Assembly: GCA_046290825.1 (NCBI GenBank)
Contig: JBKBTZ010000003.1
Coordinates: forward strand, 9,881-73,880
Length of the DNA: 64,000 bases
Source: Limisphaerales bacterium
GTDB taxonomy: Bacteria > Verrucomicrobiota > Verrucomicrobiia > Limisphaerales > DSYF01
Direction of reading: 5' to 3'
The notes under the pieces are model-generated. The model saw nothing but the letters and a program-made list of their open reading frames with translations. It was not told the origin of the DNA and did not search any database. A program made the translations under genes and the position numbers. This document shows positions 578 through 63,532 of this stretch, piece by piece; positions within the stretch are counted from its first letter, which is position 1, and each line of letters opens with the position of its first letter.

Positions 578-3500
578 TCAAGGCACCAGCCGGATCCGGT
601 AGTAGCGTTCGGGGGAGGTGGCCGCGTTGTCGGTGAAGTTGGTTTCCCCGCCGATACCCGTGATGACGCCGCCGAGGTTCTGCCACGCGCCCAAGACCAG
701 GTTGGTGCGGAATTCGACCTGATACCGCGCGCCCGGCACCGTCTGCCAGCGCAGATGGGCTGCGTTGCCGGAGACGGACGTTGCCGCAAGGGTGGGCGGC
801 GGGAATGCGGTGCAACACACACGGTTCGAGGTCACGAGGGTGACCGTCCAACCGCCCGGAATCGAGCCGCCCTTGGTGCTGAGGAAATCCTGAACATACA
901 GCTTCCACTCACCATTGGGCGTGGCCGCGAGGGCATTGACGCTGGTGCCGTAAGGTCCGGCTGGCGCGGGGGCGGTCAGCGGCGGGGCGCTGTTGTCCGT
1001 AGGCAACCAGGTGCCGGAGAGCAGCACGCCCCCATCGCCCGGAACGGGGCCGGAGGCATTGTCGTCAAAAACCAGTTGCGCGCTGCTGGCCGTCGCGGCC
1101 CCCGGGTAGCCCAGCAGCATGACCGTCTGCCCGCCGGGGCCTTCCGCCAGCACGGCGATGTCTGAAACGCGGGTGTGCGACAAACCATTCAGGCGGATGG
1201 TGGTTTTGATCACGTTTCCGTCCACGCCCGCCACGTTGACCCGTCCGGGATATGGCAGCGCGGTGCCGAAGGTGTTGATGGTAATGGGCGCCGTGCTGGT
1301 GAACTGCTGCGTCACGACCACCGGGCTGCCCATGGGAATGGCCACCACGGGCTGGCCGAGCACTGCCGCGTTGTCCGTCAGGCGAACCTGGGCGTTGACG
1401 TTGCTGGCGCACGGCCCGCTGGCGGTGAAGGTAAAGGCCCGGGTCACCATCTGGCCGGGGGCAATGACCCCGAGCGTCTCCGCCGGACCGGGCGCGAGGA
1501 CGCCGTTGGTCGCCAGCAAGGTGGCCAGGAGATTCGTGGTGGAGGCGAGACCGATGTTGCGGAAACGCAGTTCCATCGTGACCGTTTCGCCCGGGTCCAC
1601 GTTTTGGTTGCCGGGCGGACAGGATTCCAGAAGCACCGCGCCTCGTTCCACCACCAGCAGGGGAATCGGCAGCCCCGGCACCACGGTAAAATTGGTGTCC
1701 GAGACATCGTAGAAAATGTTGCCCGCCCCCTCGACCTTGATGCGGGCACGCGTCGAGGAAACCGGCGGCAGCACGACCTCGGCAGCGCCGGTGTTGGGCA
1801 CATTGCTGGCCAACAGGAATGGGAAATGGAGGCCTCCGTTGGTCGAGAGCCAGATGTTGACCCCGGCGGTGTTGATCGGCGCTGCCGCCGTGCCCGCGAC
1901 GTTCCACGTCACCGTCTGCACGTTGGACCAGGTAACCGCCGAGTTGGGCGCGGTGACCACGAATGGCCCGGCGTTGCTGATCACGGTGACGGTGGTGTCC
2001 GCGTCCGCCACGCCTCCGCCACCGGCGCGATTGTCGCGCACGGTAACGCGGAACTTCATGGTGCGGTTGAGCACCGGCAGCTTCTCCTGGTTCCAGTTGG
2101 TGTTGGCCAGCACACTGGTCAAGCGCGGGAAGAAGCGGGTTGGATTGTTGGTGGGCGGGAACGAGCGGAACAGCGGGCTGCTGCCGTTATCGGGGTCATT
2201 GAGTGACTGGGCCGCGCCGGTATCCATCTGCTCCCAGCAATAGGTGAGGGCATCCCCGTTGGGATCCGCGGCAATGGCAGTGAGCGCGAAGGGGGTCCGC
2301 GCCGGAATCACGTAGGCCGGTCCCGCATCCACCGACGGGGCGGCGTTGCCCGTGGGCACGTTGGCCGCGCAGGCGCCGCCGCTGCCGTTCAGGAACGCGA
2401 GAATCTCCGCCAGGCTGGTGGCGTGGAAATAGGGGTCGCTGTTGGGCTGCAGGTTGTTGGGGGCGCAGATGCCCGCGTAGGCCATGATGGTCGAACCGCT
2501 GCCCGGCTCGGTGGCGGTCGAGGCGTTCCGGTTGCCAAAACCGCAGGAGCCGCTGGTGGCGTTGAAGGTGTGGTTCGCGCCGAACTGATGTCCCATTTCG
2601 TGCGCCACGTAGTCCACCCAGAAGCTGTCCCCGGTGGGCGACGAACTGCCCGTCACTCCCTGGGCCTTGCGGGTGCTGCTGCACACGCTTCCCAGCGATG
2701 CCACACCGCCGCCACCCGTGCTGAACACATGGCCAATATCGTAGTTCGCGGAACCGATGATGCTGTTCACGGTGGTCTGGTTTTGCGTCAGCATGGTGAC
2801 CCCGTCATCGTTCGTGTAGGGATCGCTGCCGGGGTTGGTAAAGACCAGAAGGTCGTTGTTGGCCACGAGGATGAGCCGCACGGCAAACTCCCGCTCGAAG
2901 ATCCCGTTGATGCGGTTGATCGCAGTCACAATGGCCGCCTGGCCCTGGGCCACCGTGCCGCCGTGAAACTGCGTGTATTCTCCCGTGGCCGCGCAGGCCA
3001 GCCGGTAGGTGCGCAGCGTGGCGCCGAACAACGTGCGCTCCCCCTCGGGCCGGGGCAACACGCCCGGAACCGTTTCCCCACCCGGCACAAGACATTGGAA
3101 CGCTCCCGCTTCACGCCACTGCTCCGCCCGGCGGTAGCTCACATAATGCGTGGTGTCCCCGCGATACGCCGGATCCACATAAATGGCCCCTTCCGGCCCG
3201 AGGACCTGCGCATGGAAGCCGGCGGGAGTCACGTCGGCGCGCAGCGTGGTGGCCGGATCATCCACCGCCTCGCCCGCGAAGGTCTTGATCTCCGGGAATT
3301 TCACCGCCAGGCCCGGTTCCATGATGCTGGTCTCCACCACCCGAAACCACCGAACCTCCCCGTCCGGCAGGGGCACCGGCAGGAGCGCGCCCGCCGTGCG
3401 GGCCTGCCACGGTTCCCCCGAAGGCACCGCGCCCAGGCTCCCGCGAAACGCCGCCTCGTCCCATGCGAACATCGCTCCCCCCGTCGGCGCCACCCAACGC

Positions 3501-3911: not shown

Positions 3912-6900
3912 TCAAGGTTGCACCAGGATTCGGTAGAACCGCATCGGTTCATTCGGCGCCGCGTTGGTGATGCTGAGGAGCGTGTTGGTGCCGGGCACGG
4001 GCGCGCCCAGGTTTTGCCAAGAGCCGCTTGTGAGGTTGGTGCGGAATTGCACCTGGTAATTGGGGCCGGGCACTGCCGCCCACGTCAGCCGCGCCACGCC
4101 GTTCGACCAGGTGGTGCTGGTAAAGACCGGCGCGGGGAGCGTGCCGCAACAGACGGTGTTGGTGACCGCGGTCACAAACCGCAGCGTCCAACTGGCCAGC
4201 AATCCTGCGTCGGGCGACGCATAATCGAAGAAATAGAGGGACCAGGTGCCATTGGGTGAAACCGCCAACGGGGCCAGACGATAATCGTAATACCAACCCG
4301 GCGCCGGCGGGGGCAAATCGTAAGGCCCGGCTTCGCCATAGTAGTAATCGGTGGGCTGGTAGGTGCCCGAGGGAATTCCACCGGAATACGGCACGAGGCT
4401 CGCGGCCTCATCGTCGAAGGTCAACGTGATGCCGTTCACCGGCCCCGGATAGGTATAGCTCATGAGAATCGTGCGTTGTCCGTTGGGTGCGGCAAGCAAC
4501 ACGAACACGTCCTCCACGTAGGTGTGTGTCAGGCCGTTCAATGAAACGGTCATTTTGGTAACCGGGTTGGTCACACCGGACACGTTGATGGTAGAGGGAT
4601 ACGGCAGCGCGGTATTGTTGTCGCGGATGGTGATGGGCGAGGCGTTGTTGAAGACCTGCGTGACGACGTTGATCTGCGGCGCCCCTAGGTTGAACACCCG
4701 ACTGCGCGTGCCGTAATTGGCGGGCCCGTCGGCCAATTGCACCACCCCGGTCACCGCTCCGCCACACGGACCACCCGCCGTGAAGGTGAAGGGCCGCGAC
4801 ACGACGCCGCCGGGCGGAATGACACCATAGTTTTGCGGCGCACTCGGGAAATAGACCCCGTTGGTCGCCAGCAGCGTCGCCACCAGATTGGTGGTGGGCG
4901 CATTGCCGGAGTTGGTGATGGCCCAGTTGAGGGTCACCGTTTCATACGGGTCCACCACGCCGTTGGTCGGCAGGCAGCTTTCGGCCAGCAGCGTGACTGG
5001 CCCGACACTCAAATCGGGCGCAAGCGTGCTGATGGTGAAATTCACATCGGAGACGTCGTAAAAAATGCCGCCCGCCGCCTCGACCTTGATGCGCGCCTGC
5101 GTCGAGACCAGTCCCTGCACGTTGATGGTGCGTGAGCCGGTGTTGGGCACGTTGGTCGCAATCCAGTGCGGCCAGGTCTGCCCGCCGTCGGTGGAGAGAA
5201 AGATATTCACGTTGGCAACATTGATGGGCGATGACGCCGTTCCGGCCACATCCCATGTCACGGTGTGGGTATTGGACCACACGAGGGCGGTGTTGGGCGA
5301 AGTGACGCGGAAGGGCGCGCCAGTGTTGATCACATTAACCACGGTGTCGGCATCGGCCACACCGCCGCCCGCCGCGCGGTTGTCGCGCACCGTGACGCGA
5401 AAGTTGAGCGTGCGCGTGGTGGCGGGCAGCACCTCCTGGTTCCAGTTGGTGTTGGCGAGCACGCTGCTCACACGCGGAAAGAACCGCGTCGGACTGTTGG
5501 TCGGCGGGAGCGACCGGAACAGCGGGCCGCTGCCGCTGTCCATTCCCGTCAATCCGCTGGCCGGCCCCAAATCCCGCTGTTCCCAGCAATAGGTCAGCGC
5601 GTCGCCGTTTGGGTCCGTGGCGCTGGCGGTCAGGAAAAAGGGCGTCCCCGCCGGAATGGTGTAAGGCCCGCCCACGCTGACGGTCGGCGCGCTGTTGCCC
5701 GTAGCGGAGGTGGCCGCGCAACTCACGCTGGACAAAAATGCTTGGATCTCATCCAAGCTGGCCGTGTGAAAGTAGGCGTCCCCCTGCGATTGCAAATTGT
5801 TCGGCGAACAAATCCCCGCGTAGGCCATGATGGTGGAGCCGCTACCCGGCTCGTAGGCCGTCGAGGCATTCCGATTACCACCGCCGCAACTGCCGCTGGT
5901 GGCGTTGAAAGTATGGTTTGCGCCCAATTGATGGCCCATTTCATGCGCCACATAATCCACCCAGAAACTGTCCCCCGTTGGCGACGAACTGCCCGTCACG
6001 CCGCGCGCCTTGATTCCCGTCGTGCAAACACAGCCCAGGGTGGCAATCCCGCCCCCGCCCGTGCTGAACACATGCCCAATGTCGTAATTGGCGCTCCCGA
6101 TGATGGCGTCCACGGTGGCCTGGTTCTGCGATAACATCGCAGACCCGTCGAAGTTGTCATAGGGATCGGTCCCCGGGTTGGTGAAGACCAGCAGCGAGTT
6201 GTTGCCCACCAGCACCAGCCGCACGGCCAGTTCCTTTTCGAAAATGCCGTTGATGCGGTTGACCGCCGTCACAATCGCCGCCTGCCCCAAGGCCACCGTC
6301 CCGCCGTGAAACTGCGTGTATTCCCCCGTCGCCGCGCACGCCAGCCGGAAGGTCCGCAGCGCCGGCCCGGACTGCGTCTTTAATGCCGTGCCGCCGCCCG
6401 TTGCGATCGTTTCACGCAGGACAGCGCATTGCCACTCTTCCGCAAGCGGGACGTTGTCGCGCTTGTAGTAGCTCACCACATGATCACGGTCGCCCCGGAA
6501 CGCTGGATCCACGTAGATCGAGCCGTGCGGTGAAAGAATCTGCCCGTGAAAGCCGGCGGGCGTCACATCAAAGCGCGCCGTCGCCTCGGGATCGTCAATC
6601 CCCTCCCCGGCGTAAGTTTTGACGTCGGGAAACTGCGCCGCGAGTTCGGGCGCCATCACCGGCGTTTCCACAATCCGGAATCGCGCCGTCCCGCCGTCGG
6701 GCATCGGCACTGTTACCACTCGTCCCACCGCAGAAATCTCGGATGGTTCGGCCGGGGCAACCTCGGCGAGTTCCACCGCCAGTTGGGAATGGTTGACCCG
6801 AAACACGCCACCCCGCTGAGGGGCCACCCATCGTTCCGGCCCGCCGCGTTGGGCGGCAACTTCACCCAGATACTCCCACGGAGAAGAAGCTGCCGAGGAC

Positions 6901-7033: not shown

Positions 7034-8512
7034 TCAGTGGCCCGAAGCGCTGCTCAACAAACCGATCAACCCCGCCGGCGCGCAGCCCAGCGCCACCACT
7101 AGCACCGCCAACACCACCAACGTCAGGAGCGTCGCCAACGGCACTCGGATCGCATCGGCCCGGTCGGTCCCATCCGTCACATACACCGCCTTCAACACCC
7201 GCAGATAGTAGTAGAACGAAACCGCGCTCATCGCGATGGCCAGCACCACCAGCCACAACAGCCCGAGGTGCTTCGCCTCCGCCCCCACCACCGCGCTGAA
7301 CACAAAAAACTTTCCGATAAACCCCGCCAGCGGCGGAATGCCGCCCAGCGACAGCAGGAACACCAGCAAACACAATGACAAGACCGGTGCCCGGCGGCTC
7401 AAGCCCGCGAAGCTCGCGAGGGCATCATTCCCCGTCGCGTCCTCCACGACCTGCACGACGCCGAAAGCCCCAAGCGTGGTCACCGCGTAGGTGATGACGT
7501 AGAACAGCAAGGACGCCTGGCTCGTCTCCGTATTCGCCAGCACGCCGAGCAGCATGTAGCCCGCATGCGCAATCGCGGAATAAGCCAGCAGTCGCTTGAC
7601 GCTGCTTTGCGCGATGGCCGTGAGATTGCCCAGCACCATCGAAAGCGCCGCCACCACCGCCACCGTCGGCACCCAACCGGAAAGGAAACCGCGCCACACC
7701 CCGCTACCCTCCGCACCCGCGAACCCAATCATCATGACCTTTGCCAGAATGAAAAAGCTCGCCACCTTGGAACCCGTCGCAATGAACGCCGCGCTCGGCG
7801 TCGGCGCACCCTCATACGCGTCCGGCGCCCACAGATGGAACGGCACCGCCGCCACCTTGAACCCGAACCCGATCACCGTCATCACAATCGCGACGATCAA
7901 CATCGGGTCCAGCCCCTTGCCCGCCAGCCCGGTTGCAATCTCCCGCAGGTTCGTCGAACCCGACAGGCCATACAGCAGGCTGATGCCGAACAGCAGGCAC
8001 GCCGCCGCCATCCCGCCGAACAAGAAGTATTTCAGCGCCGCCTCCGCCGACCGGATGTTCCGCTTGTTGAACGCCGTCAGCACATAGAGCGAGAGACTGA
8101 GCAGTTCCAGCGAGATGAAGATCATCAGCAAATCCTCCGCACTCACGAGGAACATCATGCCCGCCGTCGCCAGCAGGATGAGCGCGAGATATTCGCCCAC
8201 GTGCTCGGTGAATTTGCTCGAAGTCGAAAGCACCACCGTGAAGATCGTCAGCCCGAGGATGGCCGCCTTGACCACGTTCGTCAGCGAATCCACCACGAAC
8301 ATGCCATTGGCAATGTTCGCCACGTCATGCCGCCCCACCGCCAGAAAGATGGCCAGCAGGCAGCCCACGCTGGCGATGGCCGCTCCCAGTCCGAATCGGA
8401 TGCGCACCGGCTGCTCGCGCAACGCCAGCAAATCCGCCGCCAGCACCGCCAGCGCCGTCAACACCACCGCCGTCTCCGGCGCGGCCAGCTTGAGTATTTC
8501 GAGATAGCTCAC
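7034..8512 (-). CDS. nuoN: NADH-quinone oxidoreductase subunit N
   Basis: ORF 7034..8563 trimmed to GTG 8512 (VSYLEILKL). GGGAGG lies 6 nt upstream and GTGA overlaps the nuoM stop. Polytopic ND2/NuoN-like sequence. Confidence 0.85.
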   Translation of the reverse strand: MSYLEILKLAAPETAVVLTALAVLAADLLALREQPVRIRFGLGAAIASVGCLLAIFLAVGRHDVANIANGMFVVDSLTNVVKAAILGLTIFTVVLSTSSKFTEHVGEYLALILLATAGMMFLVSAEDLLMIFISLELLSLSLYVLTAFNKRNIRSAEAALKYFLFGGMAAACLLFGISLLYGLSGSTNLREIATGLAGKGLDPMLIVAIVMTVIGFGFKVAAVPFHLWAPDAYEGAPTPSAAFIATGSKVASFFILAKVMMIGFAGAEGSGVWRGFLSGWVPTVAVVAALSMVLGNLTAIAQSSVKRLLAYSAIAHAGYMLLGVLANTETSQASLLFYVITYAVTTLGAFGVVQVVEDATGNDALASFAGLSRRAPVLSLCLLVFLLSLGGIPPLAGFIGKFFVFSAVVGAEAKHLGLLWLVVLAIAMSAVSFYYYLRVLKAVYVTDGTDRADAIRVPLATLLTLVVLAVLVVALGCAPAGLIGLLSSASGH

Positions 8513-10020
8513 AGCGCACCTCCCTTCGCCAGCAACCGTTGAAACAGCGGCGAGTTCAGGCACGGCTCAATCCAGTTCAGCAGCACGTTTGGGTAAAGCC
8601 CCACCAGCAGCGAAGTGCCGATCAGCAGCACCGCCCCAACCCGCTCCGGGACGGAGATCGGCTCCAGCTCGTGCGCGTGCTCGCCATCTGTCGAGCTGGT
8701 CACATCCGTCCCGTCTGCATAAAATCCCCGTTGCACCGCGCGCAACGTGTAAGCCACGCCCACCACGATGCCCACGCCCGCCAGCACCGCCGCCGCCGGA
8801 AAAGCCTTCCACGCGCCCATGAGCACCTGGAGTTCCGCCACAAATCCACTGAAGCCGGGCAGCCCCATCGAAGCCACGCCCGCGATGACAAACGTCACCG
8901 CCACGAACGGCAGCTTCCGGCTCAGGCCCATCAACTCCAGTTCGGTGAAGTCCCGCGTATGGGTCCGGTCATACAACATCCGGCCCACCACGGCGAACAG
9001 CAGCCCCGCGATAATGCCGTGCGAGAACATCTGCAACACCGCGCCGCTCAAGCCGACCGTGTTCAGCGTCGCCAGCCCCAGCAGCACGAAGCCCATGTGG
9101 CTCACGCTCGAATAGCCGATGACGAACTTGAAATCCTTCTGCACCAGCGCCACGCCCGCGCCATAGACGATGCCGATCACCGCCAGCACCGCGATGGCAG
9201 TCTTCCACATCGCCGCACCCTCGGGGAACAGCACCATCGCCACGCGCAGGCAGCCATAAGCGCCCAGCTTCATCACCACGCCGGCCAGCAACATCGAACC
9301 CGCCGTCGGTGCCGCCACGTGACCGGTCGGCGCCCACGTGTGGAACGGCCACAAGCCCGCGAGAATCGCGAACCCGACGAACGTCAGCGGGAAGGCCCAT
9401 TTCTGGAACTCCACCGGGAATGAAACTTTCGACAGCTCCACCAAATCCAGCGACGCGTGACCGAGTTGCCCCTTCGCCACCACCCAAGCCGCGATGAGTC
9501 CGATGAGCACGAGATGGCTGCCGACGAACGAATACAGCGCCAGCTTCATCGCGCCGTATTCCTTCCGCGTGCTGCCCCAGCGCGCGATGAGGAAATACTT
9601 CGGGATGATGGTCAACTCGTAGAACACGAACAGCAGCAGCAGATCGAAGCTGAGGAACACGCCATACACGCCGCCGATGAGCGCGAGGTAGAACGCGAAG
9701 AATTCCTTCGTCCGCTTCTCGATGTTCCAGGAAAACAAAATCCCCGCAATGGCTGCCAAGCCCGTTAGCACCACGAGCGTCAGACTAATGCCATCCGCCG
9801 CGAGATGATAATTCGCTCCCAGCGAAGGGATCCACGAGCAGTTCGTGATGGTCGCGATCTCGCCCGGATTGCCCTGCTGCAACGCGCCGATCAGCGCCAC
9901 GGCGAACCCGCCGATGGCCGTGAGCAGCGCCACCTTGCGCGCCGCCCGCGCGTCATCCCGCGGCAGGAGCATCAACACCAGCACGCCGAGAAACGAAATG
10001 TAAATGGTCCAAGCCAGCAT
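8509..10020 (-). CDS. nuoM: NADH-quinone oxidoreductase subunit M
   Basis: 503-aa ORF with ATG at 10020. ND4/NuoM-type antiporter-like subunit (WGSTRKEYGAMKLALYSFVGS). Confidence 0.9.
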   Translation of the reverse strand: MLAWTIYISFLGVLVLMLLPRDDARAARKVALLTAIGGFAVALIGALQQGNPGEIATITNCSWIPSLGANYHLAADGISLTLVVLTGLAAIAGILFSWNIEKRTKEFFAFYLALIGGVYGVFLSFDLLLLFVFYELTIIPKYFLIARWGSTRKEYGAMKLALYSFVGSHLVLIGLIAAWVVAKGQLGHASLDLVELSKVSFPVEFQKWAFPLTFVGFAILAGLWPFHTWAPTGHVAAPTAGSMLLAGVVMKLGAYGCLRVAMVLFPEGAAMWKTAIAVLAVIGIVYGAGVALVQKDFKFVIGYSSVSHMGFVLLGLATLNTVGLSGAVLQMFSHGIIAGLLFAVVGRMLYDRTHTRDFTELELMGLSRKLPFVAVTFVIAGVASMGLPGFSGFVAELQVLMGAWKAFPAAAVLAGVGIVVGVAYTLRAVQRGFYADGTDVTSSTDGEHAHELEPISVPERVGAVLLIGTSLLVGLYPNVLLNWIEPCLNSPLFQRLLAKGGAL

Positions 10021-10029
10021 GTTCAGTAT

Positions 10030-10223
10030 TTGGAGTGCGGTGACTTGTCACCGCTTTCACCGCTTTGGCGACTGGTCTCCAAAGCAGAGCCGCGTCCAGC
10101 GGCTCGACGAACAACGAAAGCCTGACGCTTCGCCGCCAGGCCGCCGCAAACAAATCGAACGCCCCGGGTGATTGACGGCGACAAGTCGCCTGCGGAAAGC
10201 GGCGACAAGTCACCGCACTCCAA
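10030..10223. repeat. about 194-bp palindromic element with terminal inverted repeats TTGGAGTGCGGTGACTTGTCACCGCTTTC / GAAAGCGGCGACAAGTCACCGCACTCCAA (family F)
   Basis: The arms at 10030..10058 and 10196..10223 are reverse complements. Each arm contains its own 8-bp hairpin (GCGGTGAC-TT-GTCACCGC). There are internal hairpins GCTTTGG..CCAAAGC and GGCGACAAGTCGCC. Confidence 0.75.
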
Positions 10224-10255
10224 GGCGGGCAGCCACCCCGCCACACCAGTTTCAA

Positions 10256-10285
10256 ATCCGTGTCTATCCGTGTTCATCCGTGGTT
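10256..10285. repeat. three tandem 10-nt units ATCCGTGTCT/ATCCGTGTTC/ATCCGTGGTT abutting the nuoM(2) stop codon
   Basis: Read directly from the sequence. A single related unit (CATCCGTGGTTA) follows the family F copy at 30409..30422. Confidence 0.7.
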
Positions 10286-11915
10286 AAAAATTCAGTTGCT
10301 CCACCAGCTTCACGACGGTCGCGTCCACCACGCCCAGCACGAGCTGCGGATACAGCCCCAGCACGAACATCAGCACCGTGCCCGGCAGCACGAGCAGCAG
10401 TTCGCCGGGCGACAAGTCAGGCAGGCGCGCCCACTTCTCGTTCAGTGGGCCGCAGAACACGCGCTGAATCAGCGTCAGCAGGAAAATCGCCGTCACGAGG
10501 ATGCCGATCGTGGAAATCGCCGCGGCCCACGGCGCGAGCGGAAACACGCCCTTGAAGATGAGGAATTCGCCGACGAACCCGTTCAGCCCTGGCAACCCGA
10601 GCGAGGAGAACAACGCGATGCCCATCAAGCCGGTGAACACCGGCACCACTTTGCGGATGCCGCCAAAGTCATCCAGCCCGCGCATTCCCCCGCTCCGCTT
10701 CTCCAGCAGGCTGACGAAGAGGAACAGCGCCGACGCCGTCAGGCCGTGGTTGAACATCTGGAGCAGCACACCGTTCAACGCGGCGGCTTTCTGGAGTTCC
10801 GGCTGGTTCACCGCCGTGGCCGCGCCGGCCGCCGCAAACATCGCGAGCAGACAGTAGCCAAGGTGGTTGATGGATGAGTAGGCCAGCATCCGCTTGAGAT
10901 CGCGCTGGGCGAACGCCGCGCACGCCGAGAGCACAATGGTCAGCACGGCGAGCCACAGCAGCGGCGTCAGCACGAGGCGGATTTGCTCGGGGAAGATCGG
11001 CAGCAGGATGCGGAGGAAGCCATACACGCCCATCTTCGACATCACGCCCGTGAGCAGCATCGTCACCGGGCTGGGGGCCTCGGAATACGCTGACGGCAGC
11101 CACGTATGAAACGGCACCACCGGCACCTTCACCGCGAACCCGAGAAACGCGCCACCGAAGATGATCAGCCCGAGCGTCTGGTAACTCAGCGTCTTCCAGC
11201 CGAGAGCATCGCCAAGTTTGGTGACGATTTCGCCGCGCTTGGCCATGTCCGAGAGTTCGATGAAATCAAAACTGCCCGTCGCCAGCCGCAGCGCGAGGAA
11301 GCTCAACAACAGCGCCACGCTCCCGACCATTGTGTAGATGAAAAACTGCGTCGCCGCCGGGCCGCGATTGGGTCCGCCCCAGAGCTTGATGAGGAAGAAC
11401 GCGGGGATCAGCGCCAGTTCCCAAAACAGGAACCAGTGGAAGAAATTCAGCGCCGTGAACGTGCCGAACAACCCCGCCTGCAACCACAACACCAGCGCGC
11501 CAAAAAGGTGGGCGTTGTCAACGCTCCCCTCACCCGCCCTTCGGGCACCCTCTCCCCGTCCGACGGGGAGAGGGCCGGGGTGAGGGGCCGCCCCGGCAAA
11601 TAGACGGTTGGAGGCCAGCAACGCCAGCGGCGTGACGATGGCCGTGAGCAACAGCATCAGCAGGCCCAGCCCGTCCACGCCCAGGCGGTATTGGATGCCG
11701 AGCGATTTCACCCAGTCGAACTGCTCGGTGAATTGCAGGTCACCCGACGCGGCGTTGAAGTTCTTCCACAAAAGCAGAGTCAGGCCGAGCGAGAGGAAGC
11801 TGAAGGTCAGCGTCAGCTTGCGCGCGAGCTTCTGCTGGTCACGCAGTCCAATGACCACAACCCCGCCGAAGACTGGCAGGAGCGTGAGGATGGTCAGCCA
11901 GGGAAAACCATTCAT
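10284..11915 (-). CDS. nuoM: NADH-quinone oxidoreductase subunit M, second paralog
   Basis: 543-aa ORF whose ATG overlaps the nuoL stop (ATGA). NuoM-type sequence (MNGFPWLTILTLLPVFGG.., WGGPNRGPAATQFFIYTMVGS). It carries a repeat-encoded insert, PHPGPLPVGRGEGARRAGEG. Confidence 0.85.
   Translation of the reverse strand: MNGFPWLTILTLLPVFGGVVVIGLRDQQKLARKLTLTFSFLSLGLTLLLWKNFNAASGDLQFTEQFDWVKSLGIQYRLGVDGLGLLMLLLTAIVTPLALLASNRLFAGAAPHPGPLPVGRGEGARRAGEGSVDNAHLFGALVLWLQAGLFGTFTALNFFHWFLFWELALIPAFFLIKLWGGPNRGPAATQFFIYTMVGSVALLLSFLALRLATGSFDFIELSDMAKRGEIVTKLGDALGWKTLSYQTLGLIIFGGAFLGFAVKVPVVPFHTWLPSAYSEAPSPVTMLLTGVMSKMGVYGFLRILLPIFPEQIRLVLTPLLWLAVLTIVLSACAAFAQRDLKRMLAYSSINHLGYCLLAMFAAAGAATAVNQPELQKAAALNGVLLQMFNHGLTASALFLFVSLLEKRSGGMRGLDDFGGIRKVVPVFTGLMGIALFSSLGLPGLNGFVGEFLIFKGVFPLAPWAAAISTIGILVTAIFLLTLIQRVFCGPLNEKWARLPDLSPGELLLVLPGTVLMFVLGLYPQLVLGVVDATVVKLVEQLNF
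11526..11587. repeat. 62-bp nested palindrome (family G): CCCCTCACCC..CCCTCTCCCCG-TCCGA-CGGGGAGAGGG..GGGTGAGGGG
   Basis: The outer 10-bp and inner 11-bp stems are perfect reverse complements. A near-identical copy lies at 63472..63532. Confidence 0.8.
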
Positions 11916-14068
11916 GACTTACGCCCCCACACGAGGAAGATGACCAGCACCACCAGCGCGACGCCGAGAACACGCAGGTAGGTTTGCACGCGGCCCGTGT
12001 GCAATTTGGACAGGCCGCCCCCGCCGCGCCGGATGCCCTCGCAGCCGGCGTCGAAACCCAGGTTCACCACAAATTCATCCGTGATGCGGTAGAGCCACGC
12101 CAGCCCGACCGTGATGCCGGACACAACCATTACCGCCCCGCCCCAAATCCAACGGTCTGCGAAATCGCACGCCTTGGCGAACCACGCGTTGAAGCGGATG
12201 ACGGTGGCTTCGTAAAGTTCATCCACGAAATACTTGTTCTTCAGCAGCGCGAAGATGTCGGGCCGCGCGACTTCGAGCACGTCCGGCTCCGCCGCCGTCT
12301 TGCGCTGACGTTTGCCGTAGAGCCACCAGCCAAGTCCGAGACCGGTGAACACGATGAGCGCCGAGGCGCCCATCAAACCGAGCGTGCCGGATTCGGTGAG
12401 CTTGCTGAAGTTGAACTCCGCGTGATGCCCGTTCAGATACGACTCAAACCACGGCCACGCGGGCGTGCCAATGATTCCCAGAAGCACGGCACAAACGGCG
12501 AGGGTGACGAGCGGCCACGTCATGACGCCGGGACTTTCGTGCGGCTCCTTGGAGTGCGCGGACTTGTCCGCGCTTTTCAAGAAGGCTCCGGTCGCGTGAA
12601 CGCCATCCGACTTCGCGTGGTTCTTGGAAAGCGGCGACGAGTCGCCGCACTCCACATGCCCGCCGCGATAGTGCCCGAAAAACACCAGCGCCACCTGCCG
12701 CGTCATGTAAAACGCGGTCAGCAGCGCGCCCGCGCAGCCGATGTAGAACGGCCAGTGCGACACCGGCCAGTTGTGCGCCGCGTGCAGGATTTCGTCCTTG
12801 CTCCAGAACCCGGAGAAGAACAGCGGGAAGCCCGCAAGCGCCAGCATGCCGACCGCGTAGGTCGCGAACGTCACCGGCATGAACTTCTTCAGCCCGCCCA
12901 TGTGCCGGATGTCCTGCTCTTCATGGCATCCGTGAATCACCGAGCCGGAACCGAGGAACAGCAGCGCCTTGAAGAATGCATGCGTAATGAGATGGAACAT
13001 GCCCACCGCCACACCACCGACGCCGAGGCCCATCATCATGTAGCCGAGCTGCGAAACCGTAGAGTAGGCGAGGATGCGCTTGATGTCATTCTGGGCGACG
13101 GCGATGGAGGCGGCGAAAATTGCGGTGAGTGCGCCAACCCAGGTCACGACCTGGAGCGCAGCAGTCACCGGCACACCGTCCGCCCCTGCCCCGCCTGCTC
13201 CCATCAACGGGAACACCCGCGCCACAAGGAACACGCCCGCCGCCACCATCGTCGCCGCGTGGATAAGCGCGCTGACGGGCGTCGGGCCTTCCATCGCGTC
13301 CGGCAACCACACGTGCAACGGCAACTGGCCGGACTTGCCGACCGCGCCGAGGAAGATGAGCAGGCCAATCGCGGTTGAAACGGCCATGCCCGCGCAAGTT
13401 GTCTTGGCAACCATCGCCGCGAGCGCAGATTGTTGCAGGCAGCCAGTGCCATCCTCGGTGTAAAAACTCAACGTGCCCGTTTGCGCGTAAAGCCAGACCA
13501 TGCCGATGAGCAGGCCGAGGTCGCCGATGCGCGTAGTGATGAATGCCTTCTTCGCCGCCGCCGCCGCGCTGGGTTTGTGATACCAGAAGCCAATGAGCAG
13601 ATAGCTGGTCAGGCCGACGATCTCCCACGACATGAACAACAGCAGAAGATTGTTCGCGATGACCACGCCGAGCATCCCCGCCGCGAACAGTGACAGGAAA
13701 CAGAAGAACCGCGTGAAATTCTCGTCGTGCGCCATGTAGCCGATGCTGAAGATGAAGATGAGCGCGCCGACGAACGTGACCATCACCAGCATCACCGCCG
13801 TGAGCGGGTCGAGCACCCAGCCAAGTTGCAGCCATTGCCCGCCAAACTGGAGCCAGTTGAAATTGAAGACCAAAGGCTCCGCCCCGTGCCCGCCATGCTT
13901 GAACGTCGCCGCCAGGGCACAAAGCGAGAGCAGGAACGCGCCGACCATCGAACCGACCGCAAGCGTCCAAGCCCGCGTCCGTTTCGGCTGCGTGCTGACG
14001 GCGATCAGCCCCGCCGCCAGCAAAGGCAGCGCGGGAATCAGCCAGAGGTTTTTTACGATCCAGATCAT
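11912..14068 (-). CDS. nuoL: NADH-quinone oxidoreductase subunit L (long form, 718 aa)
   Basis: ND5/NuoL-type sequence (MSWEIVGLTSYLLIGFW, HESP, C-terminal amphipathic helix plus final TM). ATG 14068 lies 1 nt after the vapC stop. Confidence 0.9.
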   Translation of the reverse strand: MIWIVKNLWLIPALPLLAAGLIAVSTQPKRTRAWTLAVGSMVGAFLLSLCALAATFKHGGHGAEPLVFNFNWLQFGGQWLQLGWVLDPLTAVMLVMVTFVGALIFIFSIGYMAHDENFTRFFCFLSLFAAGMLGVVIANNLLLLFMSWEIVGLTSYLLIGFWYHKPSAAAAAKKAFITTRIGDLGLLIGMVWLYAQTGTLSFYTEDGTGCLQQSALAAMVAKTTCAGMAVSTAIGLLIFLGAVGKSGQLPLHVWLPDAMEGPTPVSALIHAATMVAAGVFLVARVFPLMGAGGAGADGVPVTAALQVVTWVGALTAIFAASIAVAQNDIKRILAYSTVSQLGYMMMGLGVGGVAVGMFHLITHAFFKALLFLGSGSVIHGCHEEQDIRHMGGLKKFMPVTFATYAVGMLALAGFPLFFSGFWSKDEILHAAHNWPVSHWPFYIGCAGALLTAFYMTRQVALVFFGHYRGGHVECGDSSPLSKNHAKSDGVHATGAFLKSADKSAHSKEPHESPGVMTWPLVTLAVCAVLLGIIGTPAWPWFESYLNGHHAEFNFSKLTESGTLGLMGASALIVFTGLGLGWWLYGKRQRKTAAEPDVLEVARPDIFALLKNKYFVDELYEATVIRFNAWFAKACDFADRWIWGGAVMVVSGITVGLAWLYRITDEFVVNLGFDAGCEGIRRGGGGLSKLHTGRVQTYLRVLGVALVVLVIFLVWGRKS
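12549..12654. repeat. short (about 106 bp) family F element inside the nuoL coding sequence
   Basis: Arms TTGGAGTGCGCGGACTTGTCCGCGCTTTTC (12549..) and GAAAGCGGCGACGAGTCGCCGCACTCCA (..12654). It is translated in frame as ECGDSSPLSKNHAKSDGVHATGAFLKSADKSAHS. Confidence 0.7.
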
Positions 14069-14069
14069 G

Positions 14070-14477
14070 TCATTTGATCGGCGGACAAATCAGCGGGATG
14101 GTTTCCCGTTTGTTGCGGCGATAGACGCGAAAGTCCTCCCGGTCAGTGGTCAATATCGCGCGATCCGGGTTGAGTTCACTCATGCGGATCAGGCAAAGGT
14201 CGGCAAGATCAGGGGCGCGATCCTTGTAACGGTCCGCAAGTTCCACCAAATGCATGAGATGATCGTTTGCGTCAAAAGCCACGGCTACAAACTGATCCTC
14301 CAGCAAGCCTAGAATGGCGCGGGAGTCCTGGAGAAGGTAGGCGGCCTCCGCCAGCACAGCCTCACACGTCAGCACGGGAACATCCAACTGCGCCTCGACG
14401 CCCATGGCCCAATCGTGATGCGCATCCCGCGCATTGACATACGCCACAAGGAAACCGGTGTCGGCAATGGCCTTCAT
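14070..14477 (-). CDS. vapC: PIN-domain ribonuclease toxin VapC
   Basis: ORF 14070..14645 trimmed to ATG 14477 (MKAIADTGFLVAY). It shows the PIN acidic pattern: D6, E in TCEAVLAEA, D in DLADLCL, D in TTDRED. ATGA overlaps the upstream antitoxin. Confidence 0.8.
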   Translation of the reverse strand: MKAIADTGFLVAYVNARDAHHDWAMGVEAQLDVPVLTCEAVLAEAAYLLQDSRAILGLLEDQFVAVAFDANDHLMHLVELADRYKDRAPDLADLCLIRMSELNPDRAILTTDREDFRVYRRNKRETIPLICPPIK

Positions 14478-14689
14478 CCGCGCGAGAATCCCTTTCGCAT
14501 GGACAGGTCGCGTGGCCCGTTCTTGAGATAACCAGCCCAGCGCAGATGCGGACGCCCGCCCGCCGCTGCGCGGGCCTTCTCCAACTGGTCGCGAATCACC
14601 TTGCCCTGCGGCACACCGGTGCGCTCCGAGGTTTCCGCCAGCCACTCGGCCAGCTCCTTGTTAAGACGAACTGTGATTGTATGACTCAT
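14474..14689 (-). CDS. ribbon-helix-helix (CopG-like) antitoxin, VapB-type
   Basis: 71-aa ORF MSHTITVRLNKELAEWLAETSERTGVPQGKVIRDQLEKA with an RHH-like N-terminus. It is translationally coupled to vapC. Confidence 0.7.
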   Translation of the reverse strand: MSHTITVRLNKELAEWLAETSERTGVPQGKVIRDQLEKARAAAGGRPHLRWAGYLKNGPRDLSMRKGFSRG

Positions 14690-20053: not shown

Positions 20054-20141
20054 GGGATCAAGATTAAGATTATGATCAAGAAAACCGGCGTAAGCCCCCG
20101 GCCTCCCTCTTAATCTTCCTTTCAATCATAATCTTAATCCC
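20054..20141. repeat. palindrome built on AAGATT hexamers (family A): GGGATCAAGATTAAGATTATGATCAAG ... CAATCATAATCTTAATCCC
   Basis: The 15-nt core GATTAAGATTATGAT and its reverse complement ATCATAATCTTAATC are separated by about 45 nt. It fills the nuoA/nuoB junction. Confidence 0.7.
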
Positions 20142-26514: not shown

Positions 26515-26595
26515 GAATCGTAATCTTACTCTTCATCTTAAGCTCCCCCGACCGGTGGCGGGATTAAGATTAAGATTATGAGCAAGATTATGAGA
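26515..26595. repeat. second AAGATT-hexamer palindrome (family A)
   Basis: Left arm GAATCGTAATCTTACTCTTCATCTTAAG. Right arm GGGATTAAGATTAAGATTATGAGCAAGATTATGAG. Confidence 0.6.
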
Positions 26596-26603
26596 AGGTG
26601 GCG

Positions 26604-27361: not shown

Positions 27362-27444
27362 GGGAACATCCAACGTCCAAGGACCGCTCGGCTCCACTCG
27401 GATGTTGGATGTTGGATGTTGGATGTTGGTCGTTGGATGTTCCC
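27362..27444. repeat. hairpin with a (GGATGTT)x6 heptamer array (family B)
   Basis: GGGAACATCCAACG (27362..27375) is the perfect reverse complement of CGTTGGATGTTCCC (27431..27444). The array spans 27400..27441. Confidence 0.75.
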
Positions 27445-27526
27445 ATATTCTCCGAGCCGAGACCACCGCCGAGTTGGTCGAGTGGTTGCCCGCCATCCTC
27501 GACCGCGCCTTCAATGGCCATCCAAC

Positions 27527-28185: not shown

Positions 28186-28253
28186 GGAATGCGGCGGACT
28201 GCGACCTCTGCGCTTCGATGTCGGGGGTTGGATGTTGGATGTTCCGCCATTCC
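28186..28253. repeat. family B hairpin (GGAATGCGGCGGA ... GGATGTTGGATGTT-CCGCCATTCC) immediately after the doc stop
   Basis: Inverted repeat with a 2-nt bulge. Two GGATGTT units lie at 28230..28243. Confidence 0.6.
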
Positions 28254-30208: not shown

Positions 30209-30390
30209 TTGGACTGCGGTGACCCATCACCGCGTTCCGTGAGCGACCTGTCGCTGTCGAATTGCCGCCGCAGCAGTTTTGGCGGCAGCCTGAACGCGAG
30301 GCGTCAGGCACCTGTCATTAGTCGCGTGTCTGAACGCGGCACTGCTTTGGCGAGCAGTCACCAAAGCAGCCCCTGGTCGTTGCACTCCAA
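30209..30390. repeat. diverged family F element (termini TTGGACTGCGGTGAC.. / ..GCACTCCAA)
   Basis: It shares the terminal inverted repeat and the internal hairpin CTGCTTTGG-N10-CCAAAGCAG with 10030..10223. It is followed by CATCCGTGGTTA, as at 10276..10287. Confidence 0.55.
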
Positions 30391-56307: not shown

Positions 56308-59300
56308 TCATCCGGCGTGGTGGAGGCCGGCCAGCGCCTGTTCCAGCCGTTTCACGGAAACCGTCTCAGCCGTGCCCAGTTCCTGCGCAAACAGCGAAAC
56401 CTTGAACTCCTCGACCAGCCAGCGGAACGCCTCCACCCGCCGCCGTCCTTCCTCGCTCGCCGGCGGCTTTGCCTGCCACTGCCGGAGGGCGGTAACAAAC
56501 GGCGCGAGCTGGCGGGCGCGTTCCCGGTCCTTCACCGGATTCAATGCCGCGCGCTCCGCCCGGATGCCGAGGGCCTTGAGGTAACGCGCCAGATGCGGCA
56601 GCCGCTCGTGCGGGGTCACGACGAGAAACCGCGCGGGCAGCAGCGCGTCCAATTCGGCCTGCAACGGGTGCGGCGGTTTGGCGGCGACGGGCACAGCGGC
56701 AAGCTGGCGGAAATCCTTCAGGCTGGCAGGCCGACCGGGCGCGGCGGACTGACTCGCGCCGAGCTTGAGCGCCACTTGCTGCCGTAACTGGAGCAGCGCC
56801 TCGAGTTGGTCGCAAAAGCGGGGCACCAGGCCGGCCAGCCGCTGGCGCGCAGCGGCGACGCGCGCATGGAATTCGGCCTCGCGCAGGGCGGGCAGCGGTT
56901 CCGTGCCGAGGACGTGGTTCCGTAAGTGTTCCGCTGCGGTTTCGCGCAGTTCCTCGGCGGAGCCGATCGGCGCGTAAAGCGGGGCCAGCTTGTGCAGGGC
57001 GCGCAGGTCGTTTTCCAGCCACGCGAGGTCCTTTTGCAGGACCAGTTCAAGCAGCCGTTGCAGGCCCGCCACACCCGCTTCCCGGGCCAGTTCCGCGCTG
57101 CGGAACAGGCGCACGCTGACGTGTCCGTCCTCCACGGCCAGACCCGGCCAGGCGAAAACGGGCGGAGGTCCCGCCGCCGAAGTTTCACTGCCGCCGACGA
57201 CAATCCGTTCCGGCAAATCACCAAACGTCCATCCACTGAGGGAAACCCGTTCCCACCGCGCCGCCGCGCGCCGCCAGTCGGCGTTCTCGGTGTTCCGGCC
57301 CGTTGGCACGGCGCGCAGTTGGTCCCGCAACGCTGCCAGTTCCCGCCCGGAAACCACGGCCCGGCCGCCGGCATCCACCACCTCGATGCGGGGCCGGAGA
57401 TGCGCGGGCACGGCGTCCGCTTTCCAGGCCTCCGCCGGCACCGCGACCCCGTAACGCCGGTGGAGAAACCGCGCCAGGTCTTCGGTCAGCGCCGCGCCGG
57501 ACGGTTGCAGTTCGCGCACGATCTCCTCGATCTTGGGCTCGAGCGGCTGCAGTTCGCGCCGGAGAGACTTGGGCAACGAACGCAGCAGTTCCGCCACCTG
57601 TTCCCGGCGCAGGCCCGGCACCGCCCACGCCACCGCTGCGCCCGGCAGCGACCGCGCCAGCTCGACCGGCATCTGCACCGTGACGCCGTCCCACTCCTCG
57701 CCCGGCGCGTAGGCGTAGCGCACCGTTAGCGGCTGACCGGCCAGTTCCACGGCCTCGGGGAATTCCGTCGCATTGAAGTCCAGTTTCAAATCGCCAACCA
57801 AATCCGCCTCGGTGGCGCAGAGGAAGCTTTGATCCGGCCGCTCGCGCAGCAGGCGGTTCAGCTCATCGAAGGACGAGAGGTCGCCCAGCCGCGCCGCGTA
57901 GAAATCACACAGGGCCTGGTCCAGGTCCACCAGCCCGTGGTGGCGCGTGCGTCGCTGCCAGTCCTCAATGCGTTGCCGCACGGCGCGGTTGTGCTCCAGA
58001 AAGCGATACTGCGAACGCGCAGCGGGGAACGCGGAGCGCGGAGCCGGGCCGTCCTCGATCCCGGCCCAGTCGCTCGGGCGGAACCTGGCGTTCCGCGTTT
58101 CGCGTTCCGGGTTCTCCGTATCTTCCTCCACCTCCACCAGCGCGGCCCGGATGAAAATGGCCGCCGCCTCTTTCGGCGCGATGTTGCCGTAGGCCACGCG
58201 CTTGCGTTGCACTTCCAGCCCTTGGAAGGTCACCACCTCGTCCGCGATCACGCGGCGGGATTTCGCGTCCCAGCGCGGATGCTGGTGGGCGACCTTGCAG
58301 CAATGGGGCGCGAGTTCGTAAATCCACTCCGGCTCGATGCCCGCGAGAGTGCGGATAAACAGTTGCGAGGTCTCCACCACTTCGCCCGCAACGACCCATT
58401 CCGGCTGGCTCGACTTTGGCTCCGGCGTGGTCGGCTGGGCAGGGCTGGCCGGACGCCCTTTCGCCGGCTTCTCACCGCGAACGAACAGCGCCGAACCGGG
58501 AAAGACCGTCACCCGCCGATTGCCCGACGCCTTGTAGCGGTTCCGCTCCTCGCGCCGCGCGACATGGCCGACCAACCCCGCGAGAATCGAGCGGTGAATG
58601 GCGGCGTAGGCCGGATGGCTTTTTGCTTCCCTCTCCCCATCGGACGGGGAGAGGAATTGAGGGTGTGGGGCCAGACCCCGCTTGGCGTGTTCGCCCCGGG
58701 GAGAATTTTGAACTGTAGGTTGTCCCAACTCCTCACCCCGGCCCTCGCCCCGTCCGACGGGGCGAGGGAGGTCAGAGAGCGCGTCCTCCAATTGCGCGTG
58801 CAAGTCCTGCCACTCGCGCATCCGCACATACGAGAGGAAGTGGCGCTGGCAGAATTTCCGGCGCTGGTTCTGGCTCGGCAGCTTCTCCCATTCGTCATGC
58901 ACCGCGTTCCAGATGTTCAGCAGCGTCAGGAAGTCCGAAGTCGGGTCGGTGAACCGCTGATGCGCGGCGTTGGCGGCGGCCTGCTGGTCCAGCGGACGTT
59001 CGCGCGGGTCCTGGATGCTCAACCCGGCGGCGATGATGAGCACCTCGCGGGTCGCGTGTTCCCGCTGCGCCTGGAGCAACATCCGGCCCAGGGTCGGATC
59101 AATCGGCAGCCGCGCGAGATCGCGCCCGAGGCCGGTCAACGCGCGTTGCGCATCCAGCGCGCCCAGTTCCTGCAACAGCGCGTAACCCGCCGCGATGGCG
59201 GCCGGCGTGGGCGGCTGGAGGAACGGGAACGTCTCGATGTCGCCCAGCCCGAACGCCTTCATCCGCAGGATGACCTCGGCCAGGTTGGCGCGTTGAATCT

Positions 59301-63471: not shown

Positions 63472-63532
63472 CCCCTCACCCGCCCTTTGGGCACCCTCTC
63501 CCCTTCCGAAGGGGAGAGGGAAGGGTGAGGGG
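63472..63532. repeat. 61-bp nested palindrome (family G), intergenic copy
   Basis: CCCCTCACCCGCCCTTTGGGCACCCTCTCCCCTTCCGAAGGGGAGAGGGAAGGGTGAGGGG, nearly identical to 11526..11587. Confidence 0.8.

Follow-up and report, generated by a model that had tools for sequence, protein, structure and literature searches.

The 64,000-nucleotide window analyzed here (positions 9,881 to 73,880 of contig JBKBTZ010000003.1 from a Limisphaerales bacterium) contains a nuo operon in which one of two genes for NuoM-like antiporter subunits carries a translated 62-bp nested palindrome. The host gene is intact and lies between nuoL (11912-14068) and the second NuoM-like gene (8509-10020), which is followed by nuoN. 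Orthologous contigs show the operon order nuoA-B-C-D-I-H-J-K-L-M-M-N, without nuoEFG, and forms of complex I containing two NuoM subunits are known. The nearest named homologs of the host protein are encoded by metagenome-assembled genomes (MAGs) of Verrucomicrobiia and Limisphaerales. The element spans codons 110-130 and is read as A-PHPGPLPVGRGEGARRAGEG, where PHPGPLPVGRGEGARRAGEG corresponds to residues 111-130 of the minus-strand open reading frame. An initial annotation of this DNA had placed the palindrome within the coding sequence and given the same peptide, and both statements hold.

On the plus strand, the element reads CCCCTCACCC-GCCCTTCGGGCA-CCCTCTCCCCG-TCCGA-CGGGGAGAGGG-CCG-GGGTGAGGGG, and its outer stem (10 bp) and inner stem (11 bp) are both perfect, as first described. 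Read on the minus strand, the outer left arm becomes GGGTGAGGGG, the third block (G-block 2) of a minus-strand triplex motif, and the left linker becomes TGCCCGAAGGGC, a 12-nt "loop 2" that is nearly invariant across phyla. This linker is a hairpin in itself, and therefore a single strand would fold into a Y shape. Watson-Crick folding of the element as single-stranded DNA yielded –31 kcal/mol (z = –5.3), a value equaled by none of 200 dinucleotide shuffles, and the opposite strand showed the same folding behavior. Three occurrences of the core hairpin pattern were counted in the window, where 0.00 are expected. The second full copy, which the initial annotation had correctly listed as nearly identical and intergenic, has a 2-nt loop 2 (AA; motif at 63494) and a compensatory G:C to T:A change on both sides of the inner stem, at the pair adjoining the CCCC/GGGG run. 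The inner stem of one partial copy (58729-58768) likewise shows a compensatory change of both bases in one pair, from T:A to G:C. The mini-hairpin, the strand of the host gene and the two partial copies within hrpA had gone unmentioned, as had the repeat class and the behavior of the insertion site described below.

Features of the palindromic element, its copies and its host gene in the 64-kb window
Feature	Position	Strand	Remarks
NuoM-like antiporter subunit gene, intact	10284..11915	-	543 aa; Pfam PF00361
Nested palindrome, double triplex-motif unit	11526..11587	translated on minus strand	NuoM residues 110-130
Outer left arm CCCCTCACCC	11526..11535	+	Perfect complement of 11578-11587
Mini-hairpin linker GCCC-TTC-GGGC-A	11536..11547	+	4-bp stem, 12 nt
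Inner hairpin CCCTCTCCCCG-TCCGA-CGGGGAGAGGG	11548..11574	+	C-block, loop 1, G-block 1
Loop 2, CCG	11575..11577	+	"Type B" of Holder et al. (PMC4666352)
Outer right arm GGGTGAGGGG, G-block 2	11578..11587	+	Mirror repeat of G-block 1
Second full copy	63472..63532		Intergenic; spacer flanked by an Rrf2 gene and the probable start of a TPR gene
Partial copy, inner hairpin and degenerate right arm	58629..58670	+	Translated inside hrpA
Partial copy, opposite orientation	58729..58768	-	Translated inside hrpA as PRPVGRGEGRGEE

Comparison with related proteins indicates that the element is a derived, inserted state in NuoM, in frame and within a loop between hydrophobic helices. Alignment with the NuoM paralog encoded at 8509-10020 revealed no counterpart of the segment. 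In the closest orthologs that lack the element (P0012-P0015, 81-84% identical), the flanking residues are contiguous (...MAFWRNEDRPHIFGAL... and ...FWRNEDRPH...), and the empty alleles L002 and L127 have a short non-palindromic stretch of DNA at the site. The solved NuoM chains of Paracoccus (8qby_M) and Mycobacterium (8e9g_M) align on both sides, with a break or gap at query residues 103-143. We also looked for conservation of the segment as protein in orthologs without the repeat, and found none. Thus, the empty orthologs, the paralog and the solved chains together bear out the proposal in the initial annotation that a dispersed palindrome was inserted in frame into a loop of this subunit.

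To place the insert in the protein, we used an AlphaFold2 model built with 42 close orthologs, considering its N-terminal third only because the mean predicted local distance difference test (pLDDT) score was 55. Residues 107-132 have a pLDDT of about 33 and lie between helices 82-101 and 135-154, with a beta-hairpin (residues 61-80) in the preceding loop. The corresponding beta-hairpin faces the periplasm in published complex I structures, and therefore the loop between transmembrane helices 3 and 4 (TM3-TM4), which holds the element, probably faces the cytoplasm.

The block structure of the element points to a known class of repeats, BoxC/PIT/TMECO. In this class, a C-rich block is followed across a first loop by a G-rich block, and a short loop then leads to another G-rich block, the mirror image of the preceding one; in vitro, the single strand can adopt either a hairpin or an intrastrand purine-motif triplex. 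The motif of Holder et al. 2015 is CCCTCNCCC-N3-6-GGGNGAGGG-N3-GGGNGAGGG, with a second loop of TTA in type A and CCG in type B (PMC4666352). That study counted 3610 copies in 262 proteobacterial genomes, including 23 in E. coli MG1655, every one of them intergenic and none linked to mobile elements (PMC4666352). PIT/TMECO sequences form a stable triplex in vitro, leave no footprint in vivo, have neither promoter nor terminator activity in E. coli, and occupy loci of raised variability between strains (PMC4666352, which also cites the PIT/TMECO work of Hoyne et al. 2000).

Within the nuoM element, a C-rich block and its complementary G-rich block (CCCTCTCCC...GGGAGAGGG, matching CCCTCNCCC and GGGNGAGGG) form the hairpin at 11548-11574, and CCG followed by GGGTGAGGG at 11575-11586 supplies the second loop and second G-block, so that the plus strand reads CCCTCNCCC-N-GGGNGAGGG-CCG-GGGNGAGGG. 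The literal published pattern, with a first loop of 3-6 nt, has no match in the window because the stem is two pairs longer and 9 nt separate the 9-nt blocks. Four of these nine nucleotides extend the stem (C-G, G-C) and leave the 5-nt loop TCCGA; with N{3,11}, both full copies match. By inspection, GGGTGAGGGG antiparallel to GGGGAGAGGG gives eight G*G:C, one T*A:T and one A*A:T triads, all ten of them canonical for the purine motif. The nuoM copy departs from the intergenic location of the 23 MG1655 copies, which is a trait of those copies and not part of the definition. The E. coli phnP-yjdP spacer contains the same nested architecture without the mini-hairpin, CCCCTCACCC-TAA-CCCTCTCCCC-AGA-GGGGCGAGGG-CCG-GGGTGAGGGG, in which type A and type B units on opposite strands have one hairpin in common, and on Sinorhizobium meliloti pSymB there is a Y-shaped version whose mini-hairpin differs. 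Judged by its blocks and loops, the element belongs to the BoxC/PIT/TMECO class as a variant in which the TTA loop is replaced by the mini-hairpin TGCCCGAAGGGC. Matches to the strict published pattern also occur elsewhere in orthologous nuo operons, in the nuoM-nuoM spacers of L002 (11674-11706) and L005 (11749-11781) and inside nuoL of L004 (8681-8713), where the match lies in a 75-residue in-frame insert (...LTPALSPSEEE...HPLPAGEGRGEGE...).

The variant is widespread. Scanning one genome per species with the 30-nt core CCTCACCCNCCCNNNGGGNNCCCTCNCCCC, we found it at 117 or more loci. Hosts among the matches listed include Verrucomicrobia, Thermoanaerobaculia, Xanthomonadaceae (Pseudoxanthomonas, Lysobacter and Xanthomonas isolates), Devosia, Hyphomicrobium and Litorimonas (with Hyphomicrobiales also named), Bacteroidales, Isosphaeraceae, Geomonas and others, and among these matches the seven free positions of the search pattern are almost always G, TTC, CA and T. 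The hairpin apex varies freely yet is always self-complementary. Verrucomicrobial copies mostly have the double form with a right arm (44 distinct sequences). Copies from most other phyla lack this arm, and their other strand is a single triplex unit with the mini-hairpin as loop 2. No Rfam family covers the element in the window or in ten motif loci, where only two tRNAs were matched. There were also no matches to the core among 2.9 million viral contigs, and thus nothing to suggest that phages carry it. In Thermoanaerobaculia SMAG_U3271, the unit forms the left half of an element of about 200 bp that resembles a miniature inverted-repeat transposable element (MITE). The larger element has 28-bp terminal inverted repeats (TIRs; TGTCATCCCAATGGCCTTAACTTAGCGC), contains another unit in inverted orientation, and occurs at eight or more sites whose flanks differ. 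This arrangement indicates that the triplex unit can be carried by a transposable element. Many of the MITE-like copies (L009, L010, L014, L033, L035, L039, L055, L064 and L114) lie at contig ends.

Copies of the element are translated in other genes and in other frames. Among 127 sampled core copies, 36 (~28%) lie in frames that are open for at least 100 codons on both sides, read as GEGARRAGEG (10), GERVPEGRVRG (10), LTRPSGTLS (8), HPPFGHPL (5) or SPALRAPS (3). All five stop-free frames are therefore in use, the sixth being interrupted by the TGA of GGGTGAGGGG. Six of seven open frames that we checked have Pfam domains on the expected sides (ACR_tran of an RND pump, Eco57I methylase, RapA, F5/8-PD40, DUF7133-cytochrome c and PSD5). 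In the window itself, the two partial copies in hrpA (DEAH helicase, 56308-60603, minus strand) account for 44 residues (...PRPVGRGEGRGEE...APHPQFLSPSDGERE...) that are absent from E. coli HrpA, where residues 613 and 614 are contiguous. These data indicate that the element can be translated in frame and that its choice of frame is arbitrary, and therefore the peptide itself does not appear to be what is propagated. A literature search with the peptide strings of the insert gave nothing relevant. A different repeat, TTGGAGTGCGGYGACTTGTCRCCGCTTT, forms an in-frame inverted pair in nuoL of the window (approximately 12547-12657, read VECGDSSPLSK...KSADKSAHSKE), a second inverted pair in the nuoM-nuoM spacer (intergenic, 10028-10058 and 10195-10225) and a further copy at 30209-30236. 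The nuoL orthologs of L002 and L005 have unrelated sequence at the position of this insert.

The initial annotation regarded the insertion as recent, and this part of the proposal does not stand. The same element is found at the same position and in the same orientation in four alleles (the window, L001, L128 and L129) whose four-fold degenerate sites outside the element are only 66-79% identical, and L001 has already lost the outer right arm. Because it is common to alleles that have diverged this far, the element predates their divergence and is old.

The site is also one at which palindromes turn over. Aligning 120 NuoM orthologs, we identified at least six unrelated palindromic inserts at the same TM3-TM4 loop. 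The sequences found there include the triplex-motif element itself (HPGPLPVGRGEG...), RAGSPLPAA..DGAHGVTRPT, RADLPVGQDARQRVPT, PALAG..GDRLKPGLQ, SPRDEGAGRGPGRG..LLSPALSS, LTPALSHPMGEGG... and several singletons; some orthologs have nothing there. Every insert with readable DNA is a strong palindrome. Two insert types begin with GGT AGG GCG and end with CCT ACC (GTAG...CTAC), and a REPIN-like 26-mer, GTAGGGCGGGCAGTCCTCTGCCCGCC, recurs elsewhere in L125. When we looked for copies of the other nuoM inserts in the retrieved DNA, the L005 type and the REPIN-like type were the only ones that recurred, and none was present in the window. With this many unrelated palindromes in one loop, the site behaves as a hot spot, or repeat "nest".

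In a tree from which the loop was excluded, filled alleles are intermixed with empty ones. Nearly all filled alleles have a common 5' flank encoding LF[ADG]G, with the DNA sequence CTATTTGCYGG in the window, L001 and L003 and TTGTTTSCYGG in L125 and L126, and with cores that differ. We considered whether the "LFAG" flank (CTATTTGCYGG) is part of the inserted repeats and ruled this out, since the REPIN-like 26-mer occurs at L125:21132 next to an unrelated sequence. These features suggest a single old insertion as the common origin of the filled alleles, with later replacement of its core by other repeats, including the triplex-motif element; alternatively, the filled alleles may have arisen through independent site-specific insertions or recombination between lineages. 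The instability reported for TMECO loci in E. coli (PMC4666352) is in keeping with turnover at the nuoM site.

Together, these results lead us to consider it likely that a dispersed BoxC/PIT/TMECO repeat entered the codons of a NuoM loop, persists there as DNA, and is read through as a passive linker. The nuoM copy has the "double" form, in which a central hairpin is common to one triplex unit on each strand, and the pairing of the two third blocks with each other produces the nested palindrome. Insertion into the TM3-TM4 loop codons would have occurred in an ancestor of at least four sampled lineages, at a site that was already tolerant and probably already held another palindromic repeat, which the element appears to have replaced. 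The element would have persisted because its length keeps the frame and five of its six frames are stop-free, all five giving Gly/Pro/Arg/Glu-rich peptides expected to behave as disordered linkers. The ribosome would read straight through it, and the 20-residue peptide would have no role of its own. It is the nucleotide sequence that is retained, and not the peptide. The use of all five stop-free frames argues that the peptide is most likely a passive linker. Mobility can be inferred from dispersal and from carriage of the unit in a TIR-bearing MITE in another phylum; as to how it spreads, our best guess is a single-strand, hairpin-dependent route.

Several observations weigh against this explanation. 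The initial annotation called the palindrome mobile, and while its dispersal and carriage by a MITE in another phylum favor that description, we found no target-site duplication, terminal repeats beyond the arms, transposase or excision footprint for the element in the window. In particular, tblastn with the Y1_Tnp protein of L127 detected no Y1 transposase gene in the 64 kb, and the hairpins on either side of the Y1_Tnp genes in related nuo operons come from families distinct from the triplex motif. Most matches in the distribution scan are from MAGs, and some of their taxonomic labels may reflect mis-binning. The AlphaFold2 model is poor overall, so the disorder of the insert is a weakly supported prediction. 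Inserts of similar length (~26-30 aa) recur at the site, and thus loop length could matter. No stable triplex has been detected in vivo in the literature (PMC4666352). Finally, the synonymous conservation described next is at odds with a purely neutral passenger and leaves room for a cis-acting function.

The only differences among the elements of the window, L128 and L129 lie in the loop of the mini-hairpin and at two single bases, one in a linker and one terminal. Across these three alleles, all 14 four-fold degenerate sites within the element are invariant, compared to 57% of 265 such sites elsewhere in the gene (binomial P = 4e-4), and the invariant sites include non-preferred T- and A-ending codons. 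Thus, in most lineages the nucleotides have been held constant beyond the needs of the peptide, either through selection on DNA or RNA structure or through homogenization against other genomic copies. The first of these causes corresponds to a cis-acting nucleic-acid function, in which selection would keep a very stable mRNA hairpin, one that either paces NuoM translation or membrane insertion or shields the polycistronic nuo mRNA, or else a DNA structure with an effect on replication or transcription. Such a function would account for the confinement of changes to loops and linkers and for the compensatory stem changes in family members, and the coding-strand RNA of the loop region has a predicted fold of approximately –68 to –75 kcal/mol. 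However, the gene is intact in L001 even though its element lacks the outer right arm and contains a mismatched stem pair, sister lineages are empty at this position or carry unrelated palindromes, and the E. coli PIT/TMECO sequences show no promoter or terminator activity and no triplex footprint in vivo (PMC4666352). Gene conversion from other copies would also yield the same synonymous signal. We therefore regard a cis-acting function as possible and rather unlikely.

A second alternative is that selection acts on the protein. A longer cytoplasmic TM3-TM4 loop could be useful in a complex I with two NuoM subunits, for example in contacting the extended lateral helix of NuoL, and any repeat encoding about 20-30 hydrophilic residues might then become fixed. 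Clustering of the inserts at one loop, the similar lengths of the host proteins (540-547 aa with an insert and 511-521 aa without) and the frequency of filled alleles across the clade would all be expected under such selection. The inserts are nonetheless unrelated in sequence between lineages and range from 4 to 43 residues, and the tree places empty alleles, some of them 84% identical to the window protein, next to filled ones. Moreover, the same DNA element occurs in five frames in unrelated proteins, and nuoL and hrpA of the window carry similar repeat-derived inserts, which argues for a genome-wide process and not a NuoM-specific need. Protein-level selection is accordingly improbable. 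A chance palindrome, or an artifact of assembly or annotation such as wrongly joined reading frames or a pseudogene, is refuted: although long spurious open reading frames are common in high-GC DNA, we found no specific support for it, and it conflicts with the shuffling result, the pattern expectation of 0.00, the fact that the sequences flanking the insert align, in a single frame, with full-length NuoM, and the presence of the same filled allele in four independent assemblies.

We also put forward a broader proposal, tentatively and with more doubt than conviction. Mini-hairpin triplex units may constitute a pan-bacterial family whose nucleotides are actively maintained even in coding regions, over codon choice, and which, along with other palindromic repeats, makes certain loops of membrane and helicase proteins into nests for in-frame repeat replacement. 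This would amount to DNA-structure-driven making and remodeling of protein loops, outside Rickettsia and in free-living bacteria.

Other features of the window and of related nuo operons were recorded alongside these results. A 191-aa PIN-domain open reading frame (14070-14645, minus strand) fills a 645-bp gap between nuoK and nuoL in the window. The two genes overlap with no gene in between in L001, L002 and L005, the junction in L004 contains PIN and DUF2130 genes, and another contig has ParE-like and Y1_Tnp genes within the nuo operon. L127 has a 148-aa Y1_Tnp (IS200/RAYT-like) gene at 11549-12280 between its two nuoM genes, with inverted repeats of 49 nt and 24 nt composed of several small hairpins. 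We considered this Y1_Tnp as a link to the element and ruled it out, the flanks being other hairpin families. Downstream of the nuo operon, two adjacent genes for reprolysin-like metallopeptidases (M12B family, ~1020 aa; approximately 1200-3000 and 4600-6320) are 72-81% identical over long stretches and represent a tandem duplication that is also found in L004. Further short repeats are scattered through the window, namely GGGATYAAGATTAAGATTATGA and tandem TTGGATG units (20054-20141, 26560-26599, 27398-27450 and 28214-28252).

BoxC/PIT/TMECO repeats have reportedly been known for some 30 years and are said to be intergenic, proteobacterial and unlinked to mobile elements; to our knowledge, they have no assigned function or mode of spread. 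To this picture our analysis adds a variant that occurs across many phyla, can be translated in five frames in essential genes, can ride in a MITE, and has synonymous sites that have long been kept. The alleles of the NuoM loop, which include empty, filled, decayed and replaced states, form a natural series with which instability, conversion and selection can be compared. For annotation, Gly/Pro/Arg/Glu-rich "low-complexity" inserts in proteins of the Planctomycetes-Verrucomicrobia-Chlamydiae (PVC) group may often be read-through repeat DNA.

Rickettsia palindromic elements (RPEs) provide one comparison, being dispersed palindromic repeats that lie in frame in unrelated housekeeping genes and are read through as tolerated segments. 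RPEs are ~100-150 bp in length, and within each family a single peptide is conserved and read in a fixed frame (PMC10969869). In contrast, the element described here is 62 bp long, is used in five frames in roughly comparable numbers and in both orientations, has the triplex-motif block structure, and shows no sequence similarity to RPEs. Intragenic ERIC and MITE sequences, such as QMITE1 of Coxiella and the cyanobacterial MITEs, are also small, non-autonomous repeats that form in-frame fusions with host open reading frames (PMC10969869). Those elements have recognizable TIRs and usually target-site duplications, whereas we found none at the solitary copies in Verrucomicrobia. The 10-bp outer arms might act as TIRs, and no direct repeats or target-site duplication flank either full copy in the window.

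REP, BIME and REPIN elements resemble the palindrome in that they are short GC-rich hairpins, often in inverted pairs, that form mosaics and nests. The tetranucleotide GTAG/CTAC, a hallmark of REP and REPIN elements, is absent from the element, and yet inserts at the same nuoM site in L003, L125 and L126 start with GTAGGGCG and end with CCCTAC. Related nuo operons also contain Y1_Tnp genes with flanking inverted hairpin repeats, and L127 shows the classic REP-RAYT arrangement. Unlike such systems, the window contains no RAYT gene, and the hairpins around the observed Y1_Tnp genes are of other families.

The closest likeness is to the BoxC/PIT/TMECO class. The element has the same three blocks (CCCTCTCCC, GGGAGAGGG and GGGTGAGGG), the same 3-nt type B CCG loop, and the same paired form as the E. 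coli phnP-yjdP copy, with units of the two strands on one hairpin; in both cases there are several dispersed copies at loci that are hypervariable between relatives. It differs in that its extended stem makes loop 1 longer than the published pattern allows, and the other-strand loop 2 is a conserved 12-nt mini-hairpin instead of TTA. In addition, the variant extends far beyond the Proteobacteria, and it is translated in nuoM and hrpA, whereas 23 of 23 MG1655 copies are intergenic. In one other phylum the unit lies inside a TIR-bearing MITE, whereas Holder et al. 2015 saw no link to mobile elements. The family is thus a described one, and what is new here is its translated context, its cross-phylum occurrence, the mini-hairpin loop, the synonymous conservation and the repeat nest.

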